DNA from: Planctomycetota bacterium
GTDB lineage: Bacteria; Planctomycetota; SZUA-567; H5-PLA8
Length of the DNA: 64,000 bases
NCBI GenBank assembly: GCA_038227045.1
Contig: JBBRQD010000009.1
Location: 14,112-78,111 of the forward strand
Direction: 5' to 3'
This document shows positions 33,563-64,000 of the stretch, in pieces; within the stretch, counting starts at the first letter, position 1; the number at the start of each line of letters is the position of its first letter. A program made the position numbers and the translations under genes. Under the pieces are notes generated by a model that saw nothing but the letters and a program-made list of their open reading frames with translations, did not search any database and was not told the DNA's origin.

Positions 33563-33613
33563 GTTGTCTTGGGTGCAATCAAAGTCTCGCAGCCTGAAGG
33601 CTGAACTTCGAAC
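33543..33613. repeat. F3 hairpin element (gttcggagttcagcc ... ggctgaacttcgaac)
   Basis: The left arm at 33543..33559 overlaps the dehydratase stop codon. The right arm is at 33590..33613. Confidence 0.7.
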
Positions 33614-41255: not shown

Positions 41256-41387
41256 TCGAACGATCACAGTCTTTTATCTATTTTAATATTTTTCAGTAGC
41301 GACGCATTTTGTGTTTTTCATCCGAATCTCCCGGTGTATTTCAAGTTTGGAGATCGACGGCGAAATAACGCGGAAGCGATTCAACCC

Positions 41388-44300: not shown

Positions 44301-44639
44301 TTCCTGGGCGCATTTGACAACGCAAGCGTGCTTGAATGCTACCGCCGCCAAGAAAGCATTGTTCCGCAGCAGGCCCTTGCGCTCGCAAACAGCAAACTGT
44401 CACGCGAATGCGCCGACGCTCTGGCCGCGCGGACAGCGAAGCTCGACGAAAACGCATTCGTGGACGAGGCATTCTTAAGTCTGCTCGGCAGGCCGCCCAC
44501 AAAAGAAGAATCGAAAGTCTGCTCGGAGAGCCTGGCAACGTTGTCTGGCCTGACGCCATCAAAACCCGACGCTCAACGCACGCGCGCACTGTTTCTGCAA
44601 GCGTTGATGAGTCACAACGATTTCATTACACTCCGATGA
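41388..44639 (+). CDS. PSCyt/DUF1549/DUF1553 (PSD1) family protein with inserted LamG/DUF1080-like domain
   Basis: [18 protein letters not shown] is the planctomycete cytochrome-c motif. DUF1549-like [15 protein letters not shown] and a central [17 protein letters not shown] beta-sandwich are present. C-terminal DUF1553-like sequence follows. The start could be 41388 or 41406. Confidence 0.85.
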
Positions 44640-46270: not shown

Positions 46271-46304
46271 CTCTTTGCGCCTCTGCGTCTTTGCGAGAGA
46301 AAAT
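46271..46304 (+). repeat. F1 array
   Basis: ctctttgcgcctctgcgtctttgcgagagaaaat lies 40 nt upstream of ATG 46344. Confidence 0.7.
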
Positions 46305-46343
46305 AATGCGGTGTATACAATCCCGGCCACCGGAAATCCTCGA

Positions 46344-49224: not shown

Positions 49225-49280
49225 GTTCGGAGTTCAGCCTTCAGGCTGATATGGGTGCAGCCTGAAGGCTGAACTCCAAA
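49225..49280. repeat. F3 hairpin element, near-perfect copy
   Basis: gttcggagttcagccttcaggctg-atatgggtg-cagcctgaaggctgaactccaaac has a 24-bp stem with 1 mismatch. It is flanked by inverted F1-like sequence. Confidence 0.8.
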
Positions 49281-49283
49281 CAA

Positions 49284-49330: not shown

Positions 49331-50398
49331 ATGGCTGCAACGCCTGCAAATCCTGAACTAAGCGCCGACGACGAAAAAGCCGTCAAGCGCCTGCGCGACG
49401 CCCGAGACAAAATCGTCGGCGAACTGCAGAAAGTCATCGTCGGCCAAACTGATGTCATCGACGAAATGATGATCGCGATCTTTGCGCGCGGACATTGCCT
49501 GCTCGTCGGCGTGCCCGGCCTCGCGAAGACGCTCCTCGTCAGCACGCTTGCCAAGACGATGTCGCTGTCCTTCAAGCGCATTCAGTTCACGCCCGACTTG
49601 ATGCCGTCCGACATCACCGGCACTGAAATCCTGCAGGACGATCCGGAAACCGGCCACCGCAAGTTCATGTTCGCCAAAGGCCCGATCTTCGCCAACCTGG
49701 TTCTCGCCGACGAAATCAATCGAACGCCGCCGAAGACTCAAGCCGCGCTCCTCGAAGCCATGCAGGAAAAAAAGGTCTCTGCCGCCGGCGAAGATTACGT
49801 TCTCGACGAACCGTTCTTCGTGCTCGCGACGCAAAATCCAATCGAACAGGAAGGCACCTATCCGCTCCCCGAAGCGCAGTTGGACCGCTTCCTCTTCAAC
49901 ATCTTCGTCGACTACCCGAATTGGGACGAAGAAATCCAAATCATGAAGCGCGTCACCGGCGCGGCCGAATCGCAGCTCGAATCGGTGCTGCACAAGGAAG
50001 ACATCATCGCGCTGCAGAAGCTCGTTCGCCGCACGCCCGTCGCCGATCACATTTTCAACTACGCCGCGAAACTCGTCCGCTCGACACGCCCGAAGGAACC
50101 CGATGCGCCGGCGTTCATCAAGGACTGGCTCACCTTCGGCGCCGGGCCGCGCGCCAGCCTCAATTTGATTCTCGCCGGGAAAGCCCGCGCCATTTTGCGC
50201 GGCCGCTTCCACGTCTCAATCGATGATATCAAGGCCGTCGCGCTGCCGGTTTTGCGCCACCGCATCATCCCTAATTTCGCCGCGCAGTCCGAAGGACTGA
50301 GCACCGACGATATCGTTAAAAAACTAATTGAAACGATCCCCTCCGACGAGCGCCTCTACGATGCAAGCCGAAGCAAAGAAAAATCCGCGGTATCTTGA
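49331..50398 (+). CDS. MoxR-family AAA+ ATPase
   Basis: HCLLVGVPGLAKT is Walker A and LADEINR is Walker B. GGAGG lies 5 nt upstream. Confidence 0.95.
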   Translation: MAATPANPELSADDEKAVKRLRDARDKIVGELQKVIVGQTDVIDEMMIAIFARGHCLLVGVPGLAKTLLVSTLAKTMSLSFKRIQFTPDLMPSDITGTEILQDDPETGHRKFMFAKGPIFANLVLADEINRTPPKTQAALLEAMQEKKVSAAGEDYVLDEPFFVLATQNPIEQEGTYPLPEAQLDRFLFNIFVDYPNWDEEIQIMKRVTGAAESQLESVLHKEDIIALQKLVRRTPVADHIFNYAAKLVRSTRPKEPDAPAFIKDWLTFGAGPRASLNLILAGKARAILRGRFHVSIDDIKAVALPVLRHRIIPNFAAQSEGLSTDDIVKKLIETIPSDERLYDASRSKEKSAVS

Positions 50399-51275
50399 AC
50401 CGGCGGTGCTGCAGAAGCTCGGCAGCCTCGACCTGATCGCGCGCGAAGTGGTCGAAGGCGTCCGCGTCGGCATGCACAAAAGCCCGCTGCGCGGCTTCAG
50501 CACCGAATTCGCCCAGCACCGCCAGTACGTGCCCGGCGACGAGTTGCGCCACGTCGACTGGCGCGTCTATGGACGCACCGGCCGATACTACTTGAAGCTC
50601 TACGAAGCCGAAACGAATTTCACCGCCAACCTGCTGCTCGACGCCAGCCGCTCGATGCATTACGGTTCCGGCCCGGTCAACAAGCTCGAATACGCAAAAT
50701 ACATGGCCGCAAGCCTGGCGTATTTGATCATCGAACAGCGCGATTCGGTGGGTCTCGCGGTCTTCGATTCGGTGCTGAAACAATACATCGCGCCCAAGAG
50801 CACGATGTCGGTCGTCCGCAACATCGCCGCCGAATTGGAGAAGGTCAAGCCCGAGCCGCGCACGAACATCGCCGCGCTGCTGCATGAATTCGCCAACCGC
50901 ATCACGCGCCGCGGCTTCGTGGTTCTGTTCTCCGATTTACTCGACAATACCGAAGAGTTCCTGAAGGGCCTCGATCATCTGCGGTATCGCGGCCACAACG
51001 TCTGCGTATTTCATTTGATGGACCCGTTTGAATTGGAATTTCCATTCGACGGCTCGATGAAATTTGTCGGCCTCGAAAACGACGGCGAGATCGTCACGCA
51101 GCCCAAACGCGTGCGCGCGCGGTACCTCGAAGAAGTTCAAAAATTCCTGCGGCACGTCAAGACGTCGTGCGAACGCCGGCAGGTCGATTACGTGTTGGTG
51201 AATACCGCCAAGCCGCTCGATGGCGTGCTGTCGGCGTATTTGCTCAGCCGTTACAGAACGCTTTCGGCGAGATAA
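50361..51275 (+). CDS. DUF58-domain protein (vWA-like, MoxR partner)
   Basis: GMHKSPLRGFSTEFAQHRQYVPGDELRHVDWRVYGRT is the DUF58 signature. It overlaps the moxR 3' end by 38 nt. Confidence 0.9.
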   Translation: MQAEAKKNPRYLEPAVLQKLGSLDLIAREVVEGVRVGMHKSPLRGFSTEFAQHRQYVPGDELRHVDWRVYGRTGRYYLKLYEAETNFTANLLLDASRSMHYGSGPVNKLEYAKYMAASLAYLIIEQRDSVGLAVFDSVLKQYIAPKSTMSVVRNIAAELEKVKPEPRTNIAALLHEFANRITRRGFVVLFSDLLDNTEEFLKGLDHLRYRGHNVCVFHLMDPFELEFPFDGSMKFVGLENDGEIVTQPKRVRARYLEEVQKFLRHVKTSCERRQVDYVLVNTAKPLDGVLSAYLLSRYRTLSAR

Positions 51276-51279
51276 AAAA

Positions 51280-51347
51280 AGCCGCGCACGTAAGTAAGCG
51301 GCATTACTACACGGCACATTTTTAGCCGCTTACTGACGTGCGCGGCT
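51280..51347. repeat. F5 palindromic element, copy 1
   Basis: agccgcgcacgtaagtaagcggc-[22-nt loop]-gccgcttactgacgtgcgcggct has 23-bp arms with 1 mismatch. Confidence 0.8.
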
Positions 51348-51362
51348 CTGGAATGAGACTGA

Positions 51363-52478
51363 ATGATGACAATCGGAGCAATTAATGTGAGAAGACAAGG
51401 ATTGAGCGTTGCATCGCTCTGCCTCCTTCTATTGCTCTCATCGCGGATATGCCGCGCCGATTCTGTCGTGACCGCAAAGGAGCGCTTCGAAGGCTCTTTG
51501 ATTCTCAAGGACGGGCAGTTGCTCGTGGCTGAAAATCCGGTTGCGTGGAAGGATGTCAGCTACCTTATTAGAGACAACGCGCCGCAGACGATCAGTTCCT
51601 CCCGCATGATTCGCTTGAAGAACGGCGAGGTCTGGGCGACTGAAATCTCCGGTTTCATCGGCAAGAAACTGAGCATCGATTCGCCGCTCTTCGGATCGCA
51701 GCGCATCGACTCCGCGATTCTCGCCAGCATCGATTTTAGCCAGAATCTCGAATTGAATTCAAGCCGCCCCTCCACGCTGTACCGCGACGGTGCCCAGCCG
51801 ATTCCCGGCGACATTCTCTGGATCGATCGCGAAAAAATCGGCATGAATACGGCGTTGGGATCACTGACGCTCGCCCGCGAAAACGCACTGCGTTTCGTCT
51901 TCTCAATCGACAATAAAGATGCCGGCATGGCGCTCGATGAAATCCGCCTGCGTGACGGGAGCGTCTTCAAAGGCAAAGCTGAACTCAATGGCTCGAACAT
52001 CGAACTGACGCACGCCATCCTCGGCAAACTCGCATTTCCGCTCAACGCGGTCTGGTCTGCTCAACGCTATTCTTCTGCCGCCGCCAAAGTCGCGGGATTC
52101 GCGCCCGAAAATGTTCAATTCGTTCCGCTCATCGCCACAAAAATGGTGCCTGAAACCGCCGCTGAAAACGAAACCGGAATCTGGGGCGTCAAACTGTGGC
52201 CGGGCACAATCGCGAAACTTCCGATTCCCGAACGTGCCGAAAAAACGATCTTCCGCACGAGCCTCAAAAACGTGGCCGATGCGCGCAGCGGCGCGTCGGT
52301 AAAGATTTCGGCCGGAGGTAAAGTGCTCTTCGAGAAAGCACTTTCCGGCTCCCGCGGCGAATGGCTTTCGCTGGAATTGCCCAAAACAAAAGAACTCGAA
52401 ATAGAAGTGAATTTCGCCGGGGCATTGCGCTTTCCGGCTGGCGTCGTTTTGAGCGAAGCGCAACTGGTGTCTGAGTAA
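51363..52478 (+). CDS. secreted hypothetical protein, C-terminal NPCBM/NEW2-like beta-sandwich
   Basis: The signal is LCLLLLLSSRICRADS. The C-terminus reads FRTSLKNVADARSGASVKISAGGKVLFEKALSG...LSLELPKTKELEIEVNFAG. Confidence 0.72.
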   Translation: MMTIGAINVRRQGLSVASLCLLLLLSSRICRADSVVTAKERFEGSLILKDGQLLVAENPVAWKDVSYLIRDNAPQTISSSRMIRLKNGEVWATEISGFIGKKLSIDSPLFGSQRIDSAILASIDFSQNLELNSSRPSTLYRDGAQPIPGDILWIDREKIGMNTALGSLTLARENALRFVFSIDNKDAGMALDEIRLRDGSVFKGKAELNGSNIELTHAILGKLAFPLNAVWSAQRYSSAAAKVAGFAPENVQFVPLIATKMVPETAAENETGIWGVKLWPGTIAKLPIPERAEKTIFRTSLKNVADARSGASVKISAGGKVLFEKALSGSRGEWLSLELPKTKELEIEVNFAGALRFPAGVVLSEAQLVSE

Positions 52479-52482
52479 ACTG

Positions 52483-54714
52483 ATGACTTTTTTGAATCCA
52501 CTATGGCTTTGGGGTTGGCTTGCGCTCGGTGGCATCAGCGTGCCCATCATTATCCACCTGCTCAACAAGCTGCGTCACAAGCAGACCGACTGGGCCGCGA
52601 TGGAATTTTTGCGCAAAGCACTGCTCGTTCGCTCGCGCCGCATCCGCATCGAAGACATCCTTTTGCTGATTCTGCGCTGCCTCGCGATCGCGCTGGTGGC
52701 CTTTGCATTGGTCCGTCCAACGCTCAGCGCCTCCAGCGCCAAACTGCTCGGCGGCGGTCAAAGCGGCATCGTGATCGGACTCGACGGCTCCTTTAGCATG
52801 GCGCACGGCGTGACGGGCGCGTCGCGTTTCGACCGCGCCAAGCAGCGGCTCGATGAAATTCTCGGCACCATCACACCGGGCAGCCCGGTGACGCTCGTCG
52901 AAATGGGCAGCCGTCCGCGCATTCTGATGCGCAACGTCGGCTACGAGAAGAATCACTTCGCCGAAATCATCGCGGGCACGAAAGTCCTCCCGGAAAAAAT
53001 GAATCTCGAACCGTGCCTCGAAGAACTCGAAACGCTCATGGCCGAAATTCACGCGGCGTCGAAAGAATGCTACCTGATCAGCGACGCGCAGATCAAATCA
53101 TGGGAGGCGCTCTCGGACAAATCGAAAAAATCGATGCAGACGTTGAGCAACCTCGGCAAGCTCTTCGTCATTTCCACTGCGAGCGACGACTTCGAGAACG
53201 CGGCGCTCACGCGCTTTGAATTGGGCTCCGGTGCACTGCGCAAAGGCGCGACCGCGCGCTATGTCGCCGAAGTTCGCAACTTCGGCCAGCGCCCGATGCA
53301 GGAGGTGTCCGTCAGCCTCTCGGCAAACGACAAGATGATCGATCAGCGAGTCATCGCGCGGCTCAACGCCGGGCAGAGTGAAGTCGTGACGCTCTTTTTC
53401 CAATGTGCCGAAGCCGGCGATGTGCGCCTGACCGCCAGCCTCGGCCCGGACGCGTTGGTCATAGACAACACCCGGCACGCTGTCGCGCACGTCCGCGAAC
53501 AGGTGCGCGTGCTGCTCGTCGACGGCGAACCCTCGCCGCTGCCGTTTCAGAGCGAAACCGACTACCTCATGACCGCGCTCTTTCCGAAGAAAACAGCAGC
53601 GAGCCAGTCGATCACCGTGCAGCATGTCACAACGGCGGAACTCCCGACGCAGCCCTTCGCGGACTACGATATTGCGGTGCTGGCTAACGTCGCGGAATTG
53701 CCCGCTGAGCAAACGCGCGCATTGCACGCATTCGTCGAACGCGGCGGCGGACTGTTCATCTTCGTGGGAAAGAAGCTCACGCCGCAAGCGTTCAACACGT
53801 GGACTCAATCGGCCCAATTAGCACCGCTCGAAATCGGCGACGAGGTCGGCGACCCATCCGCGAAAAATGCGGGACAGTCGATCGACGCAAAATTTTCATC
53901 GCACCCGCTGGCCCAGAAAATCGCGTCGCTTCCATCGAAGATCGTCGACACGCCCCGCGTGCGCCGCTACTTCAGTTCCAAGCTGCTACCCGAAGGCCAG
54001 GAGATTCTGCGCATAGCGTCCGGGACAGGCATCGTCGGGTCTGACGTGCCGTTGCTTGCCGAACGCAAAGTCGGCCGTGGCAAAGTCCTCATGTTTACCA
54101 CGACCGCCGACCGCGAATGGACCGATTTGCCGATCCATCCGCTCTACTTAATTCTGCTCCACGAAGGCATCGGTTCGATGCTGGTGCAAGCCAATGAACG
54201 TCCGTTCGTCGTTGGCGATCCGTTGTTGCTTCAACTGCCGGGCCGCAGTGTCCAGGCTGCGTATTCGATCAAAAACCCAGCCGGCGAAAAGACCGAAGTC
54301 ACGCTCACCGACCGCGGCGGCGTTCCCACGCTCGAATACCCGCGTACCGATCTGCAAGGGTTTTACGAAATCCAGGCCGCCGGTGAAACCGCCGTGACGC
54401 TCATGGCGGCCAACGTGGACACCAGCGAATCCGACGTGCGCAGCCTGCGCGGCCCGGCGCTCAACACCGCGCTCGCCGGTGTCCCCGCGACAATCCTCAC
54501 CGACGATTCCGACGTCGTGCGGCTCATCACCGAATCGCGCCTTGGCCGGGAACTTTGGACCGAAATTCTGATATTGGCGCTGGCCGTTTTCCTCATCGAA
54601 TCTTTGCTGGCAAAGCGCTACTCAAAAGTCGTCACGGCAGAAGTCGCTCCATTGGGACGAAAATTGACCGCAGCGGAAATCTTGTCGGGAAGCGCCGAGA
54701 AAGTCGGAGTGTAA
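52483..54714 (+). CDS. BatA-type N-terminal double-TM domain protein with large extracytoplasmic region
   Basis: MTFLNPLWLWGWLALGGISVPIIIHLLNKLRHKQTDWAAMEFL matches the TIGR02226-like motif. The C-terminal TM is ILILALAVFLIESLLAKRY. Confidence 0.86.
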   Translation: MTFLNPLWLWGWLALGGISVPIIIHLLNKLRHKQTDWAAMEFLRKALLVRSRRIRIEDILLLILRCLAIALVAFALVRPTLSASSAKLLGGGQSGIVIGLDGSFSMAHGVTGASRFDRAKQRLDEILGTITPGSPVTLVEMGSRPRILMRNVGYEKNHFAEIIAGTKVLPEKMNLEPCLEELETLMAEIHAASKECYLISDAQIKSWEALSDKSKKSMQTLSNLGKLFVISTASDDFENAALTRFELGSGALRKGATARYVAEVRNFGQRPMQEVSVSLSANDKMIDQRVIARLNAGQSEVVTLFFQCAEAGDVRLTASLGPDALVIDNTRHAVAHVREQVRVLLVDGEPSPLPFQSETDYLMTALFPKKTAASQSITVQHVTTAELPTQPFADYDIAVLANVAELPAEQTRALHAFVERGGGLFIFVGKKLTPQAFNTWTQSAQLAPLEIGDEVGDPSAKNAGQSIDAKFSSHPLAQKIASLPSKIVDTPRVRRYFSSKLLPEGQEILRIASGTGIVGSDVPLLAERKVGRGKVLMFTTTADREWTDLPIHPLYLILLHEGIGSMLVQANERPFVVGDPLLLQLPGRSVQAAYSIKNPAGEKTEVTLTDRGGVPTLEYPRTDLQGFYEIQAAGETAVTLMAANVDTSESDVRSLRGPALNTALAGVPATILTDDSDVVRLITESRLGRELWTEILILALAVFLIESLLAKRYSKVVTAEVAPLGRKLTAAEILSGSAEKVGV

Positions 54715-54721
54715 AGAGTGA

Positions 54722-54749
54722 AAACCTGAAACCTGAAACCTGAAACCTT
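54722..54749 (+). repeat. four tandem (G)AAACCT heptamers (family F4) in the leader of the next gene
   Basis: aaacctg aaacctg aaacctg aaacctt ends 15 nt before ATG 54765. Confidence 0.8.
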
Positions 54750-54764
54750 TTTTAGTGGGAATCG

Positions 54765-57155
54765 ATGTTCAATAAATTGCTGGGCCTTGGTGAGTCGGAC
54801 GTGGTGACTCACTTCCAAGTTTACTTCCGCCGCGACTGGCCGTTCGCCGTCGCGCTGCTGCTGATCGTGGGGGCCATCGTGTTCTCCTTCTTTCAGTATC
54901 GCGGCGAAAAAGGCGTCTCGCGTTTTCTGCGAACGCTCCTGGCCACGCTGCGCGCCGCGCTGATCGCATCGATTGTGCTGGTCCTCTGGCAGCCCGTCAT
55001 GGCGCTGGATTTGTCCTCGCAGTTGCGCGGCGTCGTGCTCGTGCTCATGGACGTGTCGGAAAGCATGGCCATCGGCGATGCGCGCAACACAAAAGAGGAT
55101 CAGGAAGACGCCGCGCTGGCGCTCGGCAAAATCAAGTACGAGCAGCAAGGCCCCGGCAGCCAGCTTACCGAACAGATCAAAAAAGAAGTCGCGGCAGTCC
55201 CGCGCATCGATATCGCAAAGGGAATTTTGCAGAACAAGGAACTCGACCTGATCGAGAAATTCGGACAAGATCAGAAAGTCCGGCTGTTCGCATTCGGTGA
55301 AAATCTGCTGCCCGCGAATCAGGAAGGCGCCACGGCTGAATTCCTGCAGAAAGCCAAAGCATCGTCCAAGGCCACCGCACTGGGGTCGGCGATCGAAGAC
55401 GCCGTGGCGCAATACGGCGGACAGCCGATTGTCGGCGTCGTGCTGCTCACCGACGGCGGCTCGAACAAAGGTCTCGATCCCGTCGAAGCCGCGACGGAAT
55501 TAAAGAAGCGGAAAATTCCGCTTTTTCCTGTCGGCATCGGTTTCCCCGAACCGCCGGATGTTCAGGTTCAGAACATCGTCGTTCAGGAAACCGCGTTCAA
55601 CAAAGATCACGTGCCCGTGCGCGTGCAGTTGCAGTCCAAAGGTTTTCGCAATCAGCCGGCGGTACTGCGCTTGTCGCTCGATGGCCTGGAGATCGCAAGC
55701 AAGCCGATCGCGCTGACGGGCCAGACGCAATTCGAAGAAATCACCTTTGAGCCGGAAGGCAAATCGGGCACGGTAAAACTCGAAGCGTCCGTCCCGGCGC
55801 TGCCCGGCGAAACGGTCGTCGACAACAACAAGCTTGCGACGACCATGACGGTGATCGATGAGAAAATCAAAGTGCTCTACGTCGAAGGCGCGCCGCGCTG
55901 GGAGTACCGCTACCTCCGCGCCGTGCTGCTCCGCGACACCCGCCTGGATGTGAAATTTCTGATGACCGAAGGCGATCCGAATCTCGCGAAATTTTCGCCG
56001 CAGTATCTCTCGCGTTTTCCCGAGGACGCCGCCGACGCGTTCAACTTCGATCTCGTGATCCTCGGCGACGTGCCGTCTAGCTATTTCAACAGCTCGCAGA
56101 TGCAGCGCATCGACGAACTCGTAAAAAATCGCAGCGGTTCGCTGCTACTGCTCGCCGGCCCGATGTACGCCCCCGCGACTTATGGCGGCACGCCGATTGA
56201 ACAGATGCTGCCCGTGAAACTTGGCGTCGAAGAAAAGCAATTGCTGAGCGAAGATGTGTACCCGGTCGTCACGGCGGCGGGCTATCAGAGCGCCGCGGTC
56301 GCGCTCGAGACGTCCAACGACAAGAACGACACGCTCTGGTCGATCGTGCGCCCGCTCCATCACGTGCCCAGCCTCACCGGAGCGAAGCCCGGCGCGACGG
56401 TGCTCGCCGAATTGTCGGACGGGCTGCGGCGCAATGAATCGTATCCGCTCATCGCGTGGAGCCGTTACGGCAGCGGCAAGTCGTTCTTCGTCGGTTCTGA
56501 CCAATTGTGGCGCCTGCGCTTCAAACGCGGCGACAAATACCATTCGCGTTTCTGGGGCCAGGTCATCCGCTTCCTCACGCTCTCCCGATTGATGGGCGGC
56601 AACAAGCGCGTCCAACTTCAGACCGACCGCACCGCGTGCCAGGCGCACGACCGCGTGCAGATTTTTGCGACTGTTGTCAACGAAGCTTACGAGCCGATTC
56701 AGGCGCAGACGTACACCGCTTATGTCGAACGCGCGGGCGCGCCCGACCCCCTCGGGAAAGGGGCCATCGCGGTGAAACTCGACGCCGTTCCGCAAAAGCC
56801 CGGCTTCTTCCAGGGCGCTTACATTCCTGAAGAAGACGGGCGCTACCTCATTCGCCCCGCAAACGAAGAAGTCGCCTCCGCCAACAAATTGGAAATTGAA
56901 GTCACGACCGTACCGCTCGAGCAGCGCGAACCAGCGATGCAGGAACGTGCATTAAAAGAACTCGCCCAGATTTCCGGCGGGCGCTATTTCACGATCAAGG
57001 AACTCCCACAATTGACCAAGGCAATCAAAAAAGAAACGCGCTCGACGACAGTCCGGAAAGAAAAAGAGTTGTTCGATTTGCCCGTGGTCTTCGTGCTGAT
57101 TGTGCTGCTCGGCGGGACCGAATGGTTTATCCGCAGGCGGCACGATCTGGCGTAG
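54765..57155 (+). CDS. membrane protein with vWA-like MIDAS motif (Bat-cluster)
   Basis: N-terminal TMs are followed by VLVLMDVSESMAIGD (DxSxS). A C-terminal TM, LPVVFVLIVLLGGTEWFIRRRHD, is present. Confidence 0.83.
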   Translation: MFNKLLGLGESDVVTHFQVYFRRDWPFAVALLLIVGAIVFSFFQYRGEKGVSRFLRTLLATLRAALIASIVLVLWQPVMALDLSSQLRGVVLVLMDVSESMAIGDARNTKEDQEDAALALGKIKYEQQGPGSQLTEQIKKEVAAVPRIDIAKGILQNKELDLIEKFGQDQKVRLFAFGENLLPANQEGATAEFLQKAKASSKATALGSAIEDAVAQYGGQPIVGVVLLTDGGSNKGLDPVEAATELKKRKIPLFPVGIGFPEPPDVQVQNIVVQETAFNKDHVPVRVQLQSKGFRNQPAVLRLSLDGLEIASKPIALTGQTQFEEITFEPEGKSGTVKLEASVPALPGETVVDNNKLATTMTVIDEKIKVLYVEGAPRWEYRYLRAVLLRDTRLDVKFLMTEGDPNLAKFSPQYLSRFPEDAADAFNFDLVILGDVPSSYFNSSQMQRIDELVKNRSGSLLLLAGPMYAPATYGGTPIEQMLPVKLGVEEKQLLSEDVYPVVTAAGYQSAAVALETSNDKNDTLWSIVRPLHHVPSLTGAKPGATVLAELSDGLRRNESYPLIAWSRYGSGKSFFVGSDQLWRLRFKRGDKYHSRFWGQVIRFLTLSRLMGGNKRVQLQTDRTACQAHDRVQIFATVVNEAYEPIQAQTYTAYVERAGAPDPLGKGAIAVKLDAVPQKPGFFQGAYIPEEDGRYLIRPANEEVASANKLEIEVTTVPLEQREPAMQERALKELAQISGGRYFTIKELPQLTKAIKKETRSTTVRKEKELFDLPVVFVLIVLLGGTEWFIRRRHDLA

Positions 57156-57163
57156 GAAGTCAA

Positions 57164-57228
57164 GAGCCGCGCACGTAAGTTAGCGGCCAAAACCGTGTAA
57201 TAAGGCCGCTTACTTACGTGCGCGGCTC
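57164..57228. repeat. F5 palindromic element, copy 2 (loop inverted relative to copy 1)
   Basis: gagccgcgcacgtaagttagcggcc-aaaaccgtgtaataa-ggccgcttacttacgtgcgcggctc. Confidence 0.8.
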
Positions 57229-57241
57229 AGGGAATGCATCA

Positions 57242-58873
57242 ATGGCAGCAGAGGCAATCACATCCGAACGCGGCGGCGTCGAAGTCAAGCTTCGACGGGC
57301 TTGGCACAGGGAGCGGCGTTTCTACCACACGCGCGGACTCTGCCACACCCTCGTTTGGCTCATCGCGCTGATTCTGCTGGACTTCGCCATCGACTGGCTG
57401 CTCGAAGTCCCGGGCTATGCGCGCGTGTTGCTACTGCTCATTAATGTCGGCACCATTTCGTGGGTCGTCTACCGCAATTGGATACGGTATCTGAAGCCGT
57501 ACGACCGCACGCGCGTTGCGCTGGAAGTCGAACGCCGCCACCCGGAACTCGAAAGCCTGCTCGTCTCGTATGTCCAATTCGGCACCGGGACGTCTGCCGT
57601 GGACGCGTCCCCTTCGCTGGTTCGCGCGATGGAACGGCAGGCGCTCGATGTCACCGGGCCCCTCGATTTCCGCGACATTATTAATTTCGGGCAACTCAAA
57701 CGCATCTTCGTCGTCTCCGCGCTGGTGTTCCTTTTCTTCTGCGGTTTGAGCGTCAGGTGGTCCGACTATTTTCAAGTCCTCGTGCTGCGGCTTTTCAATC
57801 CAGGTTCGGAAGCGAAGTACCCGACGCGCACTCATATTGTTGCGATGTCCGGAAACATCATCATTCGCCAGGGAGACACGGCGACCTTGACCGTCAAAGC
57901 CGACGGGCTGATTCCCGCGCAGGGAACGCTCTATTATCAGCCCAAGGATGCAGATTGGAAAAAACTTCCTGTCGCAGTCAACGAGAAGGATGAACTCAGT
58001 TACGCCTTCCCCAACGTCTTCGAAGGCTTCGCGTACTACGTGCGCATCGGCGACGCGAAGACTGAAAAGTACACCGTCTCGGTCGTACCGCCGCCGCGTG
58101 TAACGGATGCAACGCTTAAACTTCAATTTCCCAAGTACACGAACATGAAGGAGAAAAGCATCGGCAATCTCAGTCCCGACGTGCTGGAAGGCACGGACGT
58201 GTCGTGGCAACTGCGCGTCGATCCGGCCGTTTCAAAAGCGGAGATGCTCCTGGAAGGCGGGGCGGTGACGCCGTTGGTACTGAGCGAAAATGGGCATGTC
58301 GTCGCCTACAAAACGACCGCGAAGAGTTCGTTCAATTATCAATTCCGCTGGACGGAGAGCGTCCACGGTTACAGCTACGACGAAGGCGTTCAGCATTTTC
58401 TTCGCGTGGTCCCGGACGTCGCGCCCGAAGTGGACATCATTCAGCCCTACGGTGACGAAAAGGCCACGGTCAATAAGAAAGTCACGATAAGTTTCAGAGC
58501 CATTGATGATTTTGGCGTCGTCAAGGCTTGGCTGGCGTATTCAATAAATGAAGGCGAGGAAAAAAAGGTTCCGATTCAATCGTTCAGCGGCAAGCCGCTC
58601 GAAGCGCTGAGCTGGAAACTCAAAGACAGCATCCAGAGTCTGAAGGAGAACGATGTCGTCGCGTACGCGATTGAAGTTCACGACAACTACGACGGCAAGG
58701 ACGGTCCGCATGTTGGCCGCTCGCAAACACGCCGTGTCACGATCCTGAGTCTCGCCGAATACGAGAAGTACGTCTACGAAACGCTGGCGAATCTGACGGG
58801 CGAAATTAAGAAATCGAAAGACGCGGAAGTTGAAGCGTCCGAACAGGTCAAAGTGTTGAAGGTCGGAGAATGA
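57242..58873 (+). CDS. DUF4175-like membrane protein
   Basis: RRFYHTRGLCHTLVWLIALILLDFAIDWLLE is followed by further TMs and a large beta-rich C-terminal region. Confidence 0.78.
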   Translation: MAAEAITSERGGVEVKLRRAWHRERRFYHTRGLCHTLVWLIALILLDFAIDWLLEVPGYARVLLLLINVGTISWVVYRNWIRYLKPYDRTRVALEVERRHPELESLLVSYVQFGTGTSAVDASPSLVRAMERQALDVTGPLDFRDIINFGQLKRIFVVSALVFLFFCGLSVRWSDYFQVLVLRLFNPGSEAKYPTRTHIVAMSGNIIIRQGDTATLTVKADGLIPAQGTLYYQPKDADWKKLPVAVNEKDELSYAFPNVFEGFAYYVRIGDAKTEKYTVSVVPPPRVTDATLKLQFPKYTNMKEKSIGNLSPDVLEGTDVSWQLRVDPAVSKAEMLLEGGAVTPLVLSENGHVVAYKTTAKSSFNYQFRWTESVHGYSYDEGVQHFLRVVPDVAPEVDIIQPYGDEKATVNKKVTISFRAIDDFGVVKAWLAYSINEGEEKKVPIQSFSGKPLEALSWKLKDSIQSLKENDVVAYAIEVHDNYDGKDGPHVGRSQTRRVTILSLAEYEKYVYETLANLTGEIKKSKDAEVEASEQVKVLKVGE

Positions 58874-60231
58874 CTATGATGAAACGCATCGTTTTCTGTT
58901 TGCTGATCGCAAGCGCCGTCAGTGCGGCCGCCGGAGAGGCGCGTCCGGCGCGCGGCGAACAGGCGCTGGCCGAAGAGCAGCGTCAGTTGCAGGTCAACAC
59001 GCGCCTTGGCTCGGTAAGTTCGAAGCTTGCGTCGCTCGCGGACGATATCCGGTCCAACGAACTCACGAAGGAACTGCACGCCGACAGGCTCGTCTCGATG
59101 AGTTCGTCGGTGACTGCGATCAACAAAACGAATGTGCTCGGCGCGGCGGACGCGTTCGGCAAAGCGCGCAAGGAGATGCCAAAGTTCAAGCCGCATGTGG
59201 ACGTGGCGGACAAGGAAATTCAGACCGCGGTCGTGGAATTGGACAAACTCTTGAAAGGCTCGCCCAACGCGGAACTCGAAAGTTTGCTCGCGGAACTTCG
59301 CGTCATCATCAAAAAGCAGGAGCAGCGCAAGAAAGAGACGAGCGCCTGGGGCAAGCAACTCCTCGAAGGCCAGGCGGCGGACGACAATCAGCGTCTGGAA
59401 CTGGCGCTGCTGCAAAGCCAGATTCTCCCCCGAATTCAGACTTTTCACGAGCGCTTGAAAGCGTCCGCGAAAGATGAAACCGACGAAGGGGCGAAAGTCA
59501 AAATGGTGCAGGCCGACGCGTTGATGGTTCAAAAGCCAACGAAGGGAATGCTGGAAAGCAGCGTGCAGAATATCCGCGAAAAGCAGCCGATCCCGGCCGT
59601 CGCGCAACAGGACAAGGTTCTCGAAGTCCTTCACGAAGTCGAAAAGATTCTGGAAGACGAGTCAACGGTGGCGCTCTCCGACTTCGCGGATTTGGAGAAA
59701 GCCATGAAAGACCTGGAATCGCTGAAAAACGAACTCGAAGCCGCCACGCCGCAGGAATTTCAGGCGCAGTTGCAAAATTTCCAGAGCCAGCAGGCGGATG
59801 TTAACGCGGCGCTGGCGAACATCGATGTCGCGGCGTTGCAGACCGCGCTGGCCGAAGCCGCACAGCATTTGGGCAACGGCGAACAAGCTCAAGCCGCCGC
59901 AGCCGACGCCGCCGCGCTCGCCGCGCTGCACGCGGCGCTGGAGGCTGGCAAGGAGCCGGGAACGGAACCAGGCACCGAACCGGAAATAGGAATTGGAATC
60001 GGGCCGCCCGAACTGGCCGTGATTCCGCATCAAAGCCTCGATCCGAAGGAAATGCCCCGCATGATTGCCAATTCCAAAACGGCCGAAGGCGAGCGCAAAG
60101 GCCCCAACAAAGCGCTCATCGGCGCATTGAATCCGCGCGAGCAGGAAGCGTTGCAGGAGAATTACGCGCGCGAATTGCCCGCCGAATACAAAGGGCTGCT
60201 TGAAGAATACTATGAAGCGCTTTCGAAGTAA
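58870..60231 (+). CDS. secreted coiled-coil protein (hypothetical)
   Basis: The start overlaps the upstream stop as ATGA. The signal is MKRIVFCLLIASAVSAAAG. Long E/K/Q/A-rich heptad-like stretches follow. Confidence 0.75.
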   Translation: MTMMKRIVFCLLIASAVSAAAGEARPARGEQALAEEQRQLQVNTRLGSVSSKLASLADDIRSNELTKELHADRLVSMSSSVTAINKTNVLGAADAFGKARKEMPKFKPHVDVADKEIQTAVVELDKLLKGSPNAELESLLAELRVIIKKQEQRKKETSAWGKQLLEGQAADDNQRLELALLQSQILPRIQTFHERLKASAKDETDEGAKVKMVQADALMVQKPTKGMLESSVQNIREKQPIPAVAQQDKVLEVLHEVEKILEDESTVALSDFADLEKAMKDLESLKNELEAATPQEFQAQLQNFQSQQADVNAALANIDVAALQTALAEAAQHLGNGEQAQAAAADAAALAALHAALEAGKEPGTEPGTEPEIGIGIGPPELAVIPHQSLDPKEMPRMIANSKTAEGERKGPNKALIGALNPREQEALQENYARELPAEYKGLLEEYYEALSK

Positions 60232-60250
60232 CCGCGGAGAAAGTGAACGA

Positions 60251-61264
60251 ATGAATAGACTGGTTGTCGCAATATCGTTTTCCGTGATCCTTGCGTGCGG
60301 AGGCGCTCGCGCGGAGAATGCGTCCGGCGTCGGAGTGGCCGAACTGTCTCCGGCGGCGGAGATCGCGATTGAAAAAGGCTTGAGTTTCCTCGCCAATACG
60401 CAAAATCCGGACGGGAGCTGGGGCACGACCTACCCGATGGCCGACACCGCCGTGTCGCTCATGGCGTTCATGTTGAAAGGTAATTTTCCAAAGCGCGGAA
60501 AATACGGCGCGGTGCTTGAAAAAGCCACGGTGTTCATGATCAAGCGCGGCGTCGAAGGCAAAGGTTTTCTGGGCGGCACGCAGCAGGGCATGTACGAGCA
60601 CGGGCTGGGGCTGCTGGCGCTGTCCGAAGTCTGGGGCGAAAGCGATCACCGCAAGGAAATCCGCGACGTGCTGAAAATGGGCGTTGACGTCACGCTCCGC
60701 GCGCAAAGCCCTGAAGGCGGCTGGCGCTATGGACCGCAGCCGGCCGACGCCGACATCTCCGCCACCGTCATGCATCTGGTTGCGCTTACGTCGGCGAAGG
60801 AAGCGGGCATTCTCGTCCCCGATCAAACGCTGCAACGCGCGGTTCAGTATGTCAAACGCTGCCAGTCCGCCAACGGCGGCGGCGGATTCGGCTATCAGCC
60901 CGGAGGAGCGCCCGGATTCGCGCGCACGTCGGCGGGAGTCATGTCGCTGATGATGAGCGGCCAGAAGAATTCGCAAAGCGTTCAGCACGGCCTCGAGTAC
61001 CTGGTCAAGTACAACGATGGCAAGTTCAGCAATGTCGAGTACTACAACTACGCCCACTATTACGCAATACAAAGCATGTACCAGGCGGGCGACGCGTACT
61101 ATCAGCCGTGGTATGCGCGCATTCGCGATGCGCTCCTGGCGCGCGCGAAAGCCGATGGAGGCTGGCCCGCCGGAAACAGCGGTTCCAGCCCGCAGTTTGC
61201 CACAGCGCTCTCAATCCTTGTGTTGGGAGTCCCCTATCGATTCCTGCCGATTTATCAACGATGA
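60251..61264 (+). CDS. prenyltransferase/squalene-oxidase-repeat (alpha/alpha toroid) secreted protein
   Basis: The repeats are QNPDGSWG, QSPEGGWRYGP, QSANGGGGFGYQPG and KADGGWP. The signal is MNRLVVAISFSVILACGGARA. Confidence 0.83.
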   Translation: MNRLVVAISFSVILACGGARAENASGVGVAELSPAAEIAIEKGLSFLANTQNPDGSWGTTYPMADTAVSLMAFMLKGNFPKRGKYGAVLEKATVFMIKRGVEGKGFLGGTQQGMYEHGLGLLALSEVWGESDHRKEIRDVLKMGVDVTLRAQSPEGGWRYGPQPADADISATVMHLVALTSAKEAGILVPDQTLQRAVQYVKRCQSANGGGGFGYQPGGAPGFARTSAGVMSLMMSGQKNSQSVQHGLEYLVKYNDGKFSNVEYYNYAHYYAIQSMYQAGDAYYQPWYARIRDALLARAKADGGWPAGNSGSSPQFATALSILVLGVPYRFLPIYQR

Positions 61265-63093
61265 AAAGCGCGCTGACAATTCTCGTTTTCGCCGCATCCG
61301 CATTCGCCGCCGAGGGGCGAGTGGTCTCCGATTCCGCGGGCGTCGAACGCGCTTTGAACAGTCTCGACAACGCCGATTGGATACTCCAATGGGAGGCCAT
61401 CCACGATCTGGCCGAGCAGCGCGCCGAATTGGCCGTGCCTAAGCTTCAATCGATGCTCTCGGCTAAAAACGAACCGTGGCTGCGCAGCCAGGCGCTCGCG
61501 GCGCTGGCCGGAATTCGTGGCAAGGAAATACTCGACTCCGCGCAGGAACTGGCGAAATCACAGGACGCCGTGTTGCGCGCCGGCGCGTTCAAAGCGCTGG
61601 GCGCGATCGGTTCCGACGCGGCGCTTCCCGCAATCGAGGCCGCGGTCAAGGATGCCGATCCCGGCGTGCGGGGCGAGGCGCTGGTGGCGCTGGCAAAAAT
61701 TTCGCACGAAAAATCGTGGCCCACGGTCAGCCTGGCGCTCGCCAGCGACGACCCGCGCTCCGGAATTCTGGCGCTGCCTTTCGTTGGGGGAGACGCGGCG
61801 CGAGACAAGCTTCTGGCGTTGCTGGATCACAAAGACAAGCCGACGCGCCTGGCGGTCATTGCGGCATTGAAACAAGCGCGGCTACCCGAAACGCTCAAGC
61901 CGCTCGTGAAGCGCCTGTTAAAGGAGGGCGACAGAGCCGCGCAGGACGCGATTCAGGGAGCGCTGGGCGCATTTCCCGCGCGCGCGCGCGCCGCGGCTGT
62001 CGTTGAGTTGCTCGCCGCAAATGAAATCGTGTTGAACGATCTGACGCTCGATCTGTTGAGCGGATCCGCCGAACCCGACACGTGCGCCGCGCTGGTCAGA
62101 CTCCTTCCGCAACTCGAAGCAGGCAACGGCTGGCTACTTGCCCGGACGATAAGGATCGTGGCCTCCTGTGACGCCGATCAATACGCACCGCTGTTTACGA
62201 ATTATCTAAAAAGCGGCAAAGCCGACGTGCGCCTCGCGGCCATTGAGGGGATGGGCAAATGCCGCAAGCTCGATCGTTTCGCACTGCTTAAGCCGTTGAT
62301 TACGGACTCAGACGCGCGCATCAGTGAAACGGTATTCAACGCGATTCGCGTCGCCACGCGCTGGGCGCCCGACGAAGGCATCGTCAGTTACCTCAACGAC
62401 GCATTGGTCAGCAAAGAAAAAAACGTCTTTAAAAATGCCGTGTCACTGCTGCGCGACCGGCTTCCGTCCGCGGAATTTCCGAAAGCACTGGCGCTGCTGA
62501 AGCCGCATCTGTCCGGTGCAAGCACGGAACTTCGAGACCTCTGCGTGCAGGCTCTGACGCAGGCCGCCGATCCGGAAGGCGCGCGGCAGATCGCCGCCGC
62601 TCAGGGCTGCATTTCGCAGTGGCACGTGCTAGGACCGTTGACCGAGAAGTCTGGCGATGCAGCGATCGAGTCATTCGCGCCGCCGGAGAAGGACGTCGAT
62701 TTTACTAAGAAATTCAAGTTCGGCGAAGAACCGGAAATCGCTTGGGCCGGTTACGATCTCGACCGGACCGATGGCTGGATGGATATGCAGTCGAGTGCTG
62801 GCGACGAAAAGGGATCGAGCGGCTGCGCGCTGGCCATTTTCAAAATCGCGCGCGCGCAAACGGCCGTCGCGCAAATCACAACCGAAGGCGACTTTGTTTT
62901 TTTTGTCAATGGAATGAAGCTCGCCGCCGAAGGCAAAGCAAGCACGGTGGACGTTCAATTGAAAGACGGAATAAATCGCGTGCTGGCGAAGGCCACGCGG
63001 AACGATCCGCGCGGACGCATTGCGTTCCGCTTTCGACTTGCCGACAAGCAGGGCGGGGCGATTGAATCGACGGAAACAGCGAAGACTAAATAA
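61261..63093 (+). CDS. HEAT-repeat secreted protein with C-terminal beta-sandwich domain
   Basis: The start overlaps the upstream stop as ATGA. The signal is MKSALTILVFAASAFAAEG. PBS/HEAT-like units recur (WLRSQALAALAGI, AVLRAGAFKALGAIG, PGVRGEALVALAKI, ADVRLAAIEGMGK). Confidence 0.83.
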   Translation: MKSALTILVFAASAFAAEGRVVSDSAGVERALNSLDNADWILQWEAIHDLAEQRAELAVPKLQSMLSAKNEPWLRSQALAALAGIRGKEILDSAQELAKSQDAVLRAGAFKALGAIGSDAALPAIEAAVKDADPGVRGEALVALAKISHEKSWPTVSLALASDDPRSGILALPFVGGDAARDKLLALLDHKDKPTRLAVIAALKQARLPETLKPLVKRLLKEGDRAAQDAIQGALGAFPARARAAAVVELLAANEIVLNDLTLDLLSGSAEPDTCAALVRLLPQLEAGNGWLLARTIRIVASCDADQYAPLFTNYLKSGKADVRLAAIEGMGKCRKLDRFALLKPLITDSDARISETVFNAIRVATRWAPDEGIVSYLNDALVSKEKNVFKNAVSLLRDRLPSAEFPKALALLKPHLSGASTELRDLCVQALTQAADPEGARQIAAAQGCISQWHVLGPLTEKSGDAAIESFAPPEKDVDFTKKFKFGEEPEIAWAGYDLDRTDGWMDMQSSAGDEKGSSGCALAIFKIARAQTAVAQITTEGDFVFFVNGMKLAAEGKASTVDVQLKDGINRVLAKATRNDPRGRIAFRFRLADKQGGAIESTETAKTK

Positions 63094-63117
63094 GAAGGAT
63101 GAAAGCAGCCTCTCGTG

Positions 63118-64000
63118 ATGCGATTTGCACTGCTCTGTTTTATCTTTTCGTGCATAACTGGCAGCTTCTGCGCCGCAGGTGCCGACGATGGCCCCATTGC
63201 AATTGAATGGAAGGAAAATTGGGACGCCACGTACGCCGCCAACCGCCAGCGCTGGGAGAAGGAAATCCCGCCGAAAGGCAAAAAGCCCGACTACACGTTT
63301 CAGAACCGGCTCATCTTTCTGCTCGAATCGCTGATTGAAAAATGGCCAGGCGAAAAGGTCAAACGCTCTGCCGCTTACACCGAACTGGCCGAATTGCTGA
63401 CGCAGATCAATGCGCGCGGCCGGGCCTGCGGTATTCTGAAGAAGGTCGTCGAAGAATCGCGCGGCCAGCCGGACGCGGCGCTGCAAGCGCTTCTCGGCAT
63501 CATGCGGATTTTGCCGAAACACTATGATACCGACGAGGCGCGGCAGTGGCAGGAATATGCTGCGCGCCGTTTGATCGCCTTGAACCGCGTCGGTTATCTG
63601 TCCTCCAACAATCCGACCTATGGCGACGCGTTGGAATGTTTGTTGATTGTGTGCAGTGCGCAAGGCCGCTTCCTCGAAGCCTCTCAGACGCTCGAATTGC
63701 TGAAATTTCAAAACCGCCCGGATGACCGCGTGAAGTTTCAGGAAGCGGAACTTTATTTCCGGCTTGGACACATCGATCAGGCACTGCGCGCATATCAGGA
63801 ACTTTCGTTTTTCAAACAGGATCATCAGATTCAGCAGCGCATCGCCCAACTTTCGTCGCACCGCTGGACTTCCACCGCGCAACAGGAACAGGCCTTCAGT
63901 CCGGAGTACGACAAGAAGTGGCAAAACATCGCTCCAAATCTTGTGGATAATTTCAACGAAGCCGACGCGCTTTTGCGAGACGACGCGGAAGGCAAGAGCA
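63118..64000 (+). CDS. secreted helical-repeat (TPR-like) protein, 3' end beyond the window
   Basis: It is absent from the ORF track because there is no stop in the window. My translation reads MRFALLCFIFSCITGSFCAAGADD...LELLKFQNRPDDRVKFQEAELYFRLGHIDQALRAYQEL and is open to nt 64000. Confidence 0.75.
   Translation, partial: MRFALLCFIFSCITGSFCAAGADDGPIAIEWKENWDATYAANRQRWEKEIPPKGKKPDYTFQNRLIFLLESLIEKWPGEKVKRSAAYTELAELLTQINARGRACGILKKVVEESRGQPDAALQALLGIMRILPKHYDTDEARQWQEYAARRLIALNRVGYLSSNNPTYGDALECLLIVCSAQGRFLEASQTLELLKFQNRPDDRVKFQEAELYFRLGHIDQALRAYQELSFFKQDHQIQQRIAQLSSHRWTSTAQQEQAFSPEYDKKWQNIAPNLVDNFNEADALLRDDAEGKS

Follow-up and report, generated by a model that had tools for sequence, protein, structure and literature searches.

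What does a MoxR-type ATPase serve when its gene stands at the head of a long series of genes for membrane and secreted proteins, and do these genes belong together? The question is raised by a 64,000-nt stretch of the genome of a Planctomycetota bacterium (assembly GCA_038227045.1, contig JBBRQD010000009.1, positions 14,112 to 78,111 of the forward strand), hereafter called the window, which ends within such a series. Few gene neighborhoods of bacteria that lack a molecular function are as widespread as the clusters of MoxR, DUF58, and BatA/von Willebrand factor A (vWA) genes; the phenotypes of mutants of Bacteroides, Rhizobium, Francisella, Riemerella, and Pseudomonas give a vague indication of roles in the envelope or in stress. 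Comparison of sequences from many genomes indicates that the region is a conserved operon-like cluster of ten genes (g1 to g10), the order of which is kept in Planctomycetota and Verrucomicrobiota. It comprises a MoxR-DUF58-vWA core (g1, g2, g4, and g5), a DUF4175 protein apparently divided between two genes (g6 and g7), and four further genes for secreted proteins (g3, g8, g9, and g10). We favor, with moderate confidence, the explanation that the whole is an expansion, within the lineage of Planctomycetes, Verrucomicrobia, and Chlamydiae (PVC), of the MoxR-DUF58-BatA_N/vWA-DUF4175 ("Bat/Cmd-type") envelope cluster, and that it encodes a periplasmic assembly serviced by MoxR and DUF58.

Gene order and its conservation

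Ten genes, all on the + strand, were called from position 49331 to beyond the end of the window at 64000. A first-pass annotation of the same sequence had proposed a cluster of at least ten genes, and all ten lie at or very near the places it gave. The junctions that it had singled out are exact: a 38-nt overlap of g1 and g2, a 4-nt gap between g3 and g4 (52479-52482), and ATGA start/stop overlaps between g6 and g7 (58870) and between g8 and g9 (61261). It had left the last gene running off the window; the public Logan contig L001, which agrees with the window without a difference for 12,675 bp, supplies the rest of g10 and puts the end of this gene and of the cluster at window-equivalent position 69351, where a convergent open reading frame (ORF) follows. 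Genes g1 to g10 thus span approximately 20 kb in the source genome. We place the start of the cluster at g1, since the flanking genes vary by locus and a 959-aa ORF immediately upstream is common to the window and its closest relative, L002, only.

The late genes had been expected to recur beside the MoxR core in other genomes, and they do so in two independently anchored surveys. In the first, a profile of ten g6 sequences was applied to one genome per GTDB species, which gave 36 loci, and these were searched with the window proteins by tblastn; gene counts cover the loci whose contig reached far enough. Gene order and strand were identical in 36 of 36 loci. The presence of individual genes was 24/24 for g1, 25/25 for g2, 25/26 for g3, 28/28 for g4, 30/30 for g5, 25/28 for g7, 17/17 for g8, and 13/16 for g9. 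The loci belong to Planctomycetota (Phycisphaerae, Brocadiia, Pirellulales, and Planctomycetaceae) and Verrucomicrobiota (Opitutia, Puniceicoccaceae, Verrucomicrobiales, and Kiritimatiellae). All three loci without a tblastn match to g7 have an ORF at its position; a match to the DUF4175 profile, in its C-terminal part, is given by those of L030 and L025, and a blastp match to g7 by those of L030 and L036.

The second survey, with a g8 profile against metagenome contigs, found at least 485 relatives, the best 80 loci of which were analyzed. Here g7 was present in 38 of 43 testable loci, g6 in 20 of 24, g4 together with g5 in 12 of 15, and g9 in 45 of 53, whereas g10 was found downstream in 22 of 30, in 18 of these on the same strand. 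Overall, the core accompanies g8 in approximately 80-85% of the testable loci. Across loci, the median intergenic distance of a junction is -29 nt at the lowest and +48 nt at the highest, and overlaps of 4 nt are frequent, the choice of start codons being approximate; the overlap of g1 and g2 recurs in orthologous loci with a median of -29 nt.

Our data indicate that this arrangement of ten genes is far beyond chance, because order and strand recur in every g6-anchored locus. At the same time, the cluster appears to be modular rather than one indivisible unit, since the late module (g7 to g10) is sometimes found apart from the core, and g10 is often inverted, yet still adjacent.

Two groups of loci deserve separate mention. 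In one lineage, that of L052 and L054 (also L053 and L055), the order is g7, g8, an extra minus-strand ORF of 488 aa, g9, and g10; in L052 and L054 this late module adjoins GH141-like and DUF4838/GH2_N-like genes, and no core gene lies within 7.7 kb upstream. The full cluster of the PVC type is also present on six contigs of metagenome-assembled genomes (MAGs) titled "uncultured Anaerolineales bacterium" (L007, L010, L011, L014, L015, and L017). In identity to the window these contigs resemble Planctomycetota MAGs, which suggests mislabeled taxonomy or mis-binning rather than occurrence in Chloroflexota.

Domain composition of the ten proteins

The core begins with g1 (49331-50398), a MoxR-type AAA+ ATPase with the Pfam domains AAA_3 (PF07726, 210.8 bits) and AAA_lid_2. 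Its Walker A (GVPGLAKT) and Walker B (LVLADE) motifs are both intact, and it lacks a transmembrane (TM) segment; its match to the bpMoxR model of Pfam, at 41.9 bits, is far below that to AAA_3. The next gene, g2 (50361-51275), encodes a vWA-like DUF58 protein (PF01882, 157.5 bits) with neither TM segment nor signal peptide, in which the DxSxS motif of the metal ion-dependent adhesion site (MIDAS) reads DASRS. Median identities to the orthologs are 74% for g1 and 68% for g2. The BatA-type protein is g4 (52483-54714). It combines a BatA_N double-TM anchor (PF07584, 61.6 bits; TIGR02226, 66.9 bits), a periplasmic vWA domain (VWA_2, motif DGSFS), a CARDB/immunoglobulin-like (Ig) part, a GATase1-like region related to DUF7408 and ThuA, and a C-terminal TM segment. 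The g5 protein (54765-57155) has two N-terminal TM segments, a vWA domain (DVSES), an Ig part, a GATase1-like domain, and again a C-terminal TM segment. It does not itself match BatA_N but is a distant paralog of g4, collinear with it at 23% identity over approximately 450 residues (E = 8e-4). Thus MIDAS motifs occur in g2, g4, and g5.

These matches to MoxR, DUF58, BatA_N, and MIDAS vWA families bear out the resemblance to the Bat core seen at first pass, where the double-TM BatA-type protein had been recognized correctly but placed third; it is the fourth gene, the third (g3) having been counted and left undescribed. The GATase1-like Pfam matches of g4 and g5 are under cutoff, and there is no conserved Cys in these regions (residues 340-560 of g4 and 370-610 of g5) among 26-28 orthologs, so that neither domain is an amidotransferase. 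No match to BatD (PF13584) at E <= 0.01 and no redox domain was found in any of the ten proteins; nor was an SH3 domain detected among them, the repeats present being tetratricopeptide repeats (TPRs) in g10 and HEAT repeats in g9.

The proteins of g6 (57242-58873) and g7 (58870-60231) had been taken for a DUF4175-like membrane protein and a secreted coiled-coil protein. Both genes are real, but the comparisons indicate that together they are a single DUF4175, a relation overlooked before, split between a membrane/Ig half (g6) and a secreted helical half (g7). The g6 protein scores 23.0 bits with PF13779 (cutoff, 27.3) over profile positions 217-332, and most of its homologs have a precomputed PF13779 match in the N-terminal or middle part of the profile. 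The g7 protein of the window has no match to PF13779; its orthologs match positions 647-760, with 38.8 and 31.1 bits against a gathering score of 27.3. As homologs of g6 and orthologs of g7 match separate parts of the profile, the two genes would jointly cover the split family. An unsplit DUF4175 of 1268 aa stands directly after MoxR-DUF58-BatA_N/vWA on plasmid 1 of Gemmatirosa kalamazoonensis.

The start of g6 is most likely ATG 57242, as in the public gene call, rather than GTG 57218, a codon within a hairpin. In the AlphaFold model of g6 (predicted local distance difference test score, pLDDT, 86.7) a TM hairpin is followed by approximately 70 cytosolic residues in helical form, a third TM segment, three periplasmic sandwiches of the Ig/FN3/macroglobulin (MG) type, and a terminal helix; a Foldseek search with it returned generic Ig strings only, including complement MG domains. 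The g7 protein, of 453 to 1235 aa depending on the locus, ends in the strongly conserved motif YARELPxEYRxLLExYYEALSK. Extra genes between g7 and g8, considered for gaps of 1-3 kb in the tblastn maps, were ruled out; the ORF maps show a longer g7.

Several variants of this pair were observed. In L031 (11719-14772) two g7-like genes of 582 and 414 aa stand in tandem, both products ending in ...ELPREYRDLL.AYYELLSRQ, as if the C-terminal half of DUF4175 had been duplicated locally. In L023 (1939-4137, protein P0047) a g6 homolog of 732 aa has PA14 and GLEYA matches inserted in its periplasmic part, a further hint of carbohydrate binding. DUF4175 is also mentioned in a paper on AdvA of A. baumannii, but as a short N-terminal match of a division protein, which is uninformative for the cluster.

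Of the added secreted proteins, g3 (51363-52478) proved the most difficult to classify. It has a signal peptide and is all-beta, with small beta repeats followed by a C-terminal sandwich, and no Pfam or NCBIfam model matches it. Word-indexed searches retrieved five and then eight proteins, even with a profile of 21 sequences; exhaustive HMMER comparison with 1.84 billion cluster representatives was needed, and it gave 179 full-length matches at E <= 1e-30 in two length classes. Our data indicate, therefore, that g3 represents a sizeable protein family without a Pfam or NCBIfam model. In the AlphaFold2 model, built on an alignment of seven rows, pLDDT is 54 overall and approximately 80 in the C-terminal domain, the only usable part. 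This domain superimposes on the CBM51 structure 2vmh with a root mean square deviation of 2.1 Å over 100 columns by Foldseek. The ortholog of L021 scores 21.1 bits with NPCBM (PF08305; cutoff, 23.9; E = 3e-4), a family that the g3 of the window does not match, and two distant profile matches, P0087 and P0088, carry PF08305. These three lines, weak but concordant, suggest a CBM51/NPCBM-like C-terminal domain; a search of PDB sequences with the g3 profile gave nothing significant. The verrucomicrobial/Pirellulales-type orthologs (L020-L024, L030, L036, and L037) are longer, 550-616 aa, and have an additional N-terminal module, of approximately 200 aa in the verrucomicrobial proteins, with the motif WGH[IV]x[VLI]D; L020 and L021 also have an EF-hand-like DxDxDG segment.

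The secreted g8 protein (60251-61264) forms a single predicted alpha/alpha toroid of the terpene-cyclase/prenyltransferase repeat type (SQHop_cyclase_C, 47.1 bits; Prenyltrans, 32.8 bits). It is third in conservation within the cluster (median identity, 55%; range, 48-80%), with the invariant motifs MYEHG, GGWRY, and DADIS and an invariant LPIYQR at the C-terminus. The 15 orthologs aligned show little or no variation in the last residues, LGVPYRFLPIYQR-COOH (61225-61264), an unusual constraint for a secreted protein; this end may be a docking peptide. A class II terpene or squalene-hopene cyclase was considered for g8 and rejected: that architecture is two-domain (beta-gamma) and of approximately 600 aa, whereas g8 is a single toroid of 337 aa with DADIS where DxDD is required, and it scores 50.3 bits with TIGR01787, for which the cutoff is 322.7. 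Its matches to solved structures in PDB arise from repeated QW-like segments only.

The g9 protein (61261-63093) is secreted and has four HEAT_2 repeats, as had been proposed, followed by a C-terminal beta domain; for the beta-sandwich suggested at first pass there are weak GH2_N2/PA14 hints (E = 0.03-0.3). Of g10 (63118-64000), 294 of 2077 codons lie in the window, and the TPR-like protein seen there has turned out to be far larger. The complete secreted protein, taken from L001, is of 2077 aa and combines TPRs with propellers of the PQQ_2/BamB-like type in two regions and with parts that resemble CBM9 and GH2_N.

Hairpins in the gaps and flanking genes

Three long hairpins lie around or within the cluster. 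The type-A hairpin (49225-49281), similar to repetitive extragenic palindromic (REP) elements, has 24-bp arms and is nested in a larger inverted repeat in the 176-nt gap 5' of g1, which folds at -80.1 kcal/mol. The two copies of type B are one palindrome with GCCGCGCACGTAAGTAAGCGGC arms: copy 1 (51280-51347; 23-bp arms; -42.9 kcal/mol) fills the gap between g2 and g3, and copy 2 (57164-57228; 25-bp arms; -50.6 kcal/mol) that between g5 and g6, where it covers GTG 57218. The first-pass annotation had considered boundaries at what it called F5 elements, which we take to be these hairpins. This is not borne out. No T-run follows any of the three on the + strand, including the type-A hairpin, and a terminator scan, in which the sites did not outnumber those in shuffled sequence, left the intergenic gaps empty on the + strand. 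L002, the closest relative (69-88% protein identity), has equally strong hairpins of unrelated sequence between g4 and g5 and between g5 and g6, while the type-B hairpin is missing from its g2/g3 junction. Since they lack a U-tail and are conserved in neither sequence nor position even in L002, the hairpins do not mark conserved functional boundaries; they seem to behave as REP-type elements that are particular to a genome and lodge where the gaps are larger, and they may adjust the stability of mRNA or dampen read-through.

Palindromes of type A (with GTTCGGAGTTCAGCCTTCAGGCTG-type arms of 24-25 bp) occur three times in the window, at 10706-10780, 33543-33613, and 49225-49281. Together with the copies of type B, this suggests that the genome carries families of REP-like intergenic elements. 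Rfam has no family for the hairpins; one sub-threshold hairpin match was to a miRNA model. The 50-nt gap between g4 and g5 contains a perfect heptamer repeat, (AAACCTG) x3.9, followed by T6 (54722-54748). One of the strong hairpins of L002 lies at this junction, and strongly folding gaps occur here in several other loci in a rough survey that is qualitative owing to contamination by unaligned N-terminal coding sequence and high G+C.

Upstream of the cluster, at 41334-46078, are genes for a PSCyt1/PSCyt2/PSD1 protein of 1101 aa and a DUF1501 protein, a pair that is a hallmark of PVC genomes (PMC3542564); the longest DUF1501 ORF overlaps the gene before it by approximately 300 nt, and its true start is probably more downstream. 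The 959-aa ORF (46275-49154), with a TTG start in the longest frame and no Pfam match, has 42% identity to its counterpart in L002.

A working model, its rivals, and known systems

By prediction, g1 and g2 are cytoplasmic, g4, g5, and g6 are inner-membrane proteins with their bulk in the periplasm, and g3, g7, g8, g9, and g10, all with N-terminal signal peptide-like segments, are secreted, in agreement with the signal peptides and TM segments noted earlier for the late proteins. The g4 and g5 proteins each have two N-terminal TM segments and one at the C-terminus. Between its N-terminal TM segments g4 has a loop with many Lys and Arg residues, consistent with the N-out, loop-in topology assigned to the TIGR02226 family. 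The vWA domain of Borrelia BB0173 has been mapped experimentally to the periplasm (PMC5700661), and the topology of g4 fits this.

Among 26-29 orthologs, the parts of g4 and g6 that face the cytoplasm are the best conserved. In the TM hairpin and cytosolic loop of g4, 27-45% of columns are at least 90% conserved, against 2-12% in the periplasmic part; the cytosolic segment of g6 has 21% of such columns, against 5-8% in its Ig domains. The exception is g5, where the periplasmic GATase1-like domain is the most conserved part (35%). Thus in g4 and g6 the strongest constraint is on segments that a cytoplasmic ATPase could reach, in keeping with the very high conservation of g1 and g2.

MoxR ATPases are known to act with a MIDAS vWA adaptor on a dedicated client, as do CbbQ-CbbO, NorQ-NorD, and Rea1 (PMC8926400, PMC3495828). 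The first-pass annotation had suggested a large envelope-associated assembly that the MoxR/vWA chaperone pair would build or remodel. In the cluster the classical MoxR-vWA contact could not be made directly with g4 or g5, because MoxR/DUF58 and the vWA domains of these proteins are predicted on opposite sides of the membrane; any coupling would have to pass via the cytosolic loops. We therefore propose g4 and g6 as the points of action, since g2 is the sole cytoplasmic MIDAS protein and the g4 loop and g6 segment are the only constrained surfaces exposed to the cytoplasm. In the working model, g4, g5, and g6/g7 would form a periplasmic scaffold anchored in the inner membrane and composed of vWA/MIDAS domains, strings of Ig domains, GATase1-like domains without catalytic activity, and a stalk of helices. 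On this scaffold g3, g8, g9, and g10 would dock as solenoid, toroid, and lectin-like partners, and MoxR, via DUF58 as the MIDAS adaptor, would work on the cytosolic parts of g4 and g6 so as to assemble, remodel, or reset the complex. In view of the lectin-like modules, the ligand may be a glycan. By analogy, the physiological role is most likely maintenance or protection of the cell envelope: a mutant in RL3499-RL3502 of R. leguminosarum has defects of envelope and morphology, as cited in PMC5700661, and PA4317-23 (Arc2) of P. aeruginosa is protective (PMC8926400).

Several observations weigh against this proposal. The predicted placement of MoxR/DUF58 and of the g4/g5 vWA domains on opposite sides of the membrane is one. 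In approximately 15-20% of the g8-anchored loci (L052, L054, L058, and L108) the late module stands apart from the core, and g9 is absent from 3 of 16 and g10 from 8 of 30 testable loci. The long hairpins could cause attenuation at two internal junctions, and the model of g3, with its overall pLDDT of 54, is of low confidence. Finally, the phenotypes used as analogy are heterogeneous, since no role of the Leptospira Bat proteins in oxidative stress could be demonstrated (PMC3557215).

Some of these observations would be accommodated by two juxtaposed, separable modules, a Bat/Cmd-type core of g1-g6 and a periplasmic late module of g7-g10 (perhaps with g3) that has a job of its own; in many cases shared regulation or genomic inertia would be all that links them. 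The core-less loci L058 and L108, as well as L052 and L054 with their GH141-like and DUF4838/GH2-like neighbors, would be expected under this explanation, as would the many loci with g10 on the opposite strand, the Gemmatirosa core without g3, g8, g9, and g10, and the hairpins at g2/g3 and g5/g6. Yet the parts are collinear and adjacent in 36 of 36 g6-anchored and in most g8-anchored loci of two phyla, with short or negative spacing widespread. Moreover, g7 travels with the late genes and is nonetheless the apparent C-terminal half of the DUF4175 of g6, to which it is joined by an ATGA overlap. We regard two independent modules as unlikely.

Somewhat less probable still, in our view, is a periplasmic machine that would bind, hold, or process a polysaccharide or a glycan of the cell wall in the enlarged PVC periplasm, with g8 as the enzyme and MoxR/vWA as an assembly factor only. 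Carbohydrate-binding resemblances do accumulate in the cluster: the CBM51/NPCBM-like g3, the CBM9-like and GH2_N-like parts of g10, the weak GH2_N2/PA14-like hint in g9, and the PA14/GLEYA insertion in P0047. The invariant polar and aromatic residues of g8 (MYEHG, GGWRY, and DADIS), in a protein of 48-80% identity, suggest a pocket, and the separated late module of L054 adjoins glycoside hydrolase-like genes. However, every match to a carbohydrate module is under or near the threshold of its family, the conserved block has no gene for a glycoside hydrolase, lyase, or transporter, g8 lacks DxDD and resembles solved structures via generic QW-type repeats only, and many lineages have the core cluster but no such carbohydrate modules.

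A bolder variant, which we offer as a speculation with little probability, joins this idea to the working model: a PVC-specific trans-envelope machine for binding or processing of envelope glycans, powered by the AAA+ ATPase, which would pull via DUF58 on the g4 loop and the g6 segment. The energy of ATP would then cross the inner membrane into a periplasm-spanning assembly of Ig domains, DUF4175 stalk, vWA domains, toroid, HEAT and TPR solenoids, and propellers. Such a machine would be the functional counterpart of the Tol/Ton-type systems, driven by cytoplasmic ATP instead of the proton-motive force; should the idea be correct, it would account for the Bat/Cmd clusters as a class.

A literal aerotolerance or oxidative-stress system, like the Bat operon of Bacteroides, seems quite improbable. 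The shared parts are MoxR, DUF58, BatA_N, the two vWA membrane proteins, and TPR-type partners, and the Bat name goes back to a B. fragilis phenotype, as cited in PMC5700661. The ten proteins include no redox domain, and no equivalent of BatD (PF13584) or of the SH3-TPR protein BatE was detected among them. Furthermore, the loci come from MAGs named Brocadiia, Kiritimatiellae, Pirellulales, and Opitutia, groups that together include anaerobes and aerobes. The proposed oxidative-stress role was also not found in the study of Leptospira (PMC3557215). As for an NTP-dependent conflict or defense system of the MoxR-vWA-beta-propeller ternary type, to which the weak bpMoxR match of g1 and the nearby propeller protein g10 might point, it is scarcely credible in view of the higher AAA_3 score of g1 (210.8 against 41.9 bits), the lack of effector or VMAP-type domains, the secretion of the propeller protein, the generic HEAT matches on g9 as the only ones given by PADLOC, and a gene order fixed over all loci in two phyla, unlike that of mobile defense islands.

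The expanded Bat/Cmd-type cluster that we prefer is of interest beyond the locus. The PVC version fixes a larger, invariant set of partners: a lectin-like protein, a very well conserved toroid, a protein with HEAT repeats, and the giant TPR-propeller protein. It marks a conserved envelope system for PVC biology and makes the old question of what such clusters do more tractable. The searchable literature on MoxR, DUF58, BatA, or DUF4175 together with PVC taxa, which excludes subscription-only papers, contains no description of the extended cluster, and the paper of Kamneva et al. (2012) on PVC genome content does not mention it. Two published leads proved unrelated: the mucin utilization loci of Akkermansia, considered on account of a periplasmic protein complex, are a Sus-like one (MUL1) and a type-IV-pilus one (MUL2), and the MoxR-vWA-transglutaminase operon of Zhang and Aravind (2012) is a different system.

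Among known systems, the MoxR-vWA-beta-propeller ternary systems of Kaur et al. (2020; PMC7159879) have MoxR, vWA, and propeller proteins in one neighborhood, as does the cluster, but their bpMoxR clade, cytoplasmic effector-linked vWA, and mobile distribution have no counterpart in it. Arc2 (PA4317-PA4323) of P. aeruginosa is a multi-gene system that is implicated in protection against interbacterial antagonism, is regulated by Gac/Rsm, and occurs in Pseudomonadaceae and Xanthomonadaceae (PMC8926400); compared by its MoxR and vWA parts, it resembles the cluster in having a MoxR-like ATPase and a vWF-domain protein. CbbQ-CbbO (a Rubisco activase), NorQ-NorD, and RavA-ViaA likewise place a MoxR-class ATPase gene beside that of a MIDAS adaptor with the vWA fold, the place taken here by DUF58. 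Their clients are soluble or cytoplasm-facing enzymes, whereas the presumed clients in the cluster are mostly periplasmic membrane proteins, and an enzyme client, evident in pairs of the CbbQ-CbbO type, is not evident here.

The Bat clusters are closer. BatI of Bacteroides fragilis, bb0170-bb0176 of Borrelia, and the bat genes of Leptospira have the same succession of MoxR, DUF58, and two MIDAS vWA membrane proteins, and they share with our cluster the BatA_N-type anchor, the periplasm-facing vWA domains, and the alpha-solenoid (TPR) partners. The vWA proteins of the cluster exceed twice the length of those of the Bat systems and contain additional Ig and GATase1-like domains, and the architectures of g9 and g10 are far from the short BatC and BatE. 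In contrast to BatI, the cluster has no detected BatD or BatE equivalents; in their stead are the split DUF4175, the toroid, the HEAT protein, the TPR-propeller giant, and the CBM51-like protein.

The closest parallel outside the PVC-type loci is plasmid 1 of Gemmatirosa kalamazoonensis, which has the same first genes, the long vWA plus GATase1-like architecture, and an adjacent DUF4175. It differs in lacking g3, g8, g9, and g10, in having the g5-like gene elsewhere in the locus, and in the unsplit state of its DUF4175. The cmd operon of Rhizobium leguminosarum (RL3499-RL3502) is presumably also of the MoxR-DUF58-BatA_N/vWA-DUF4175 type. As the Gemmatimonadota locus has the core alone, g3, g8, g9, and g10 appear as add-ons, seen here in PVC-type loci only. 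Thus what seems to be new is a Bat/Cmd-type cluster with fixed added partners and a split DUF4175, found in our comparisons only in loci of the PVC type.

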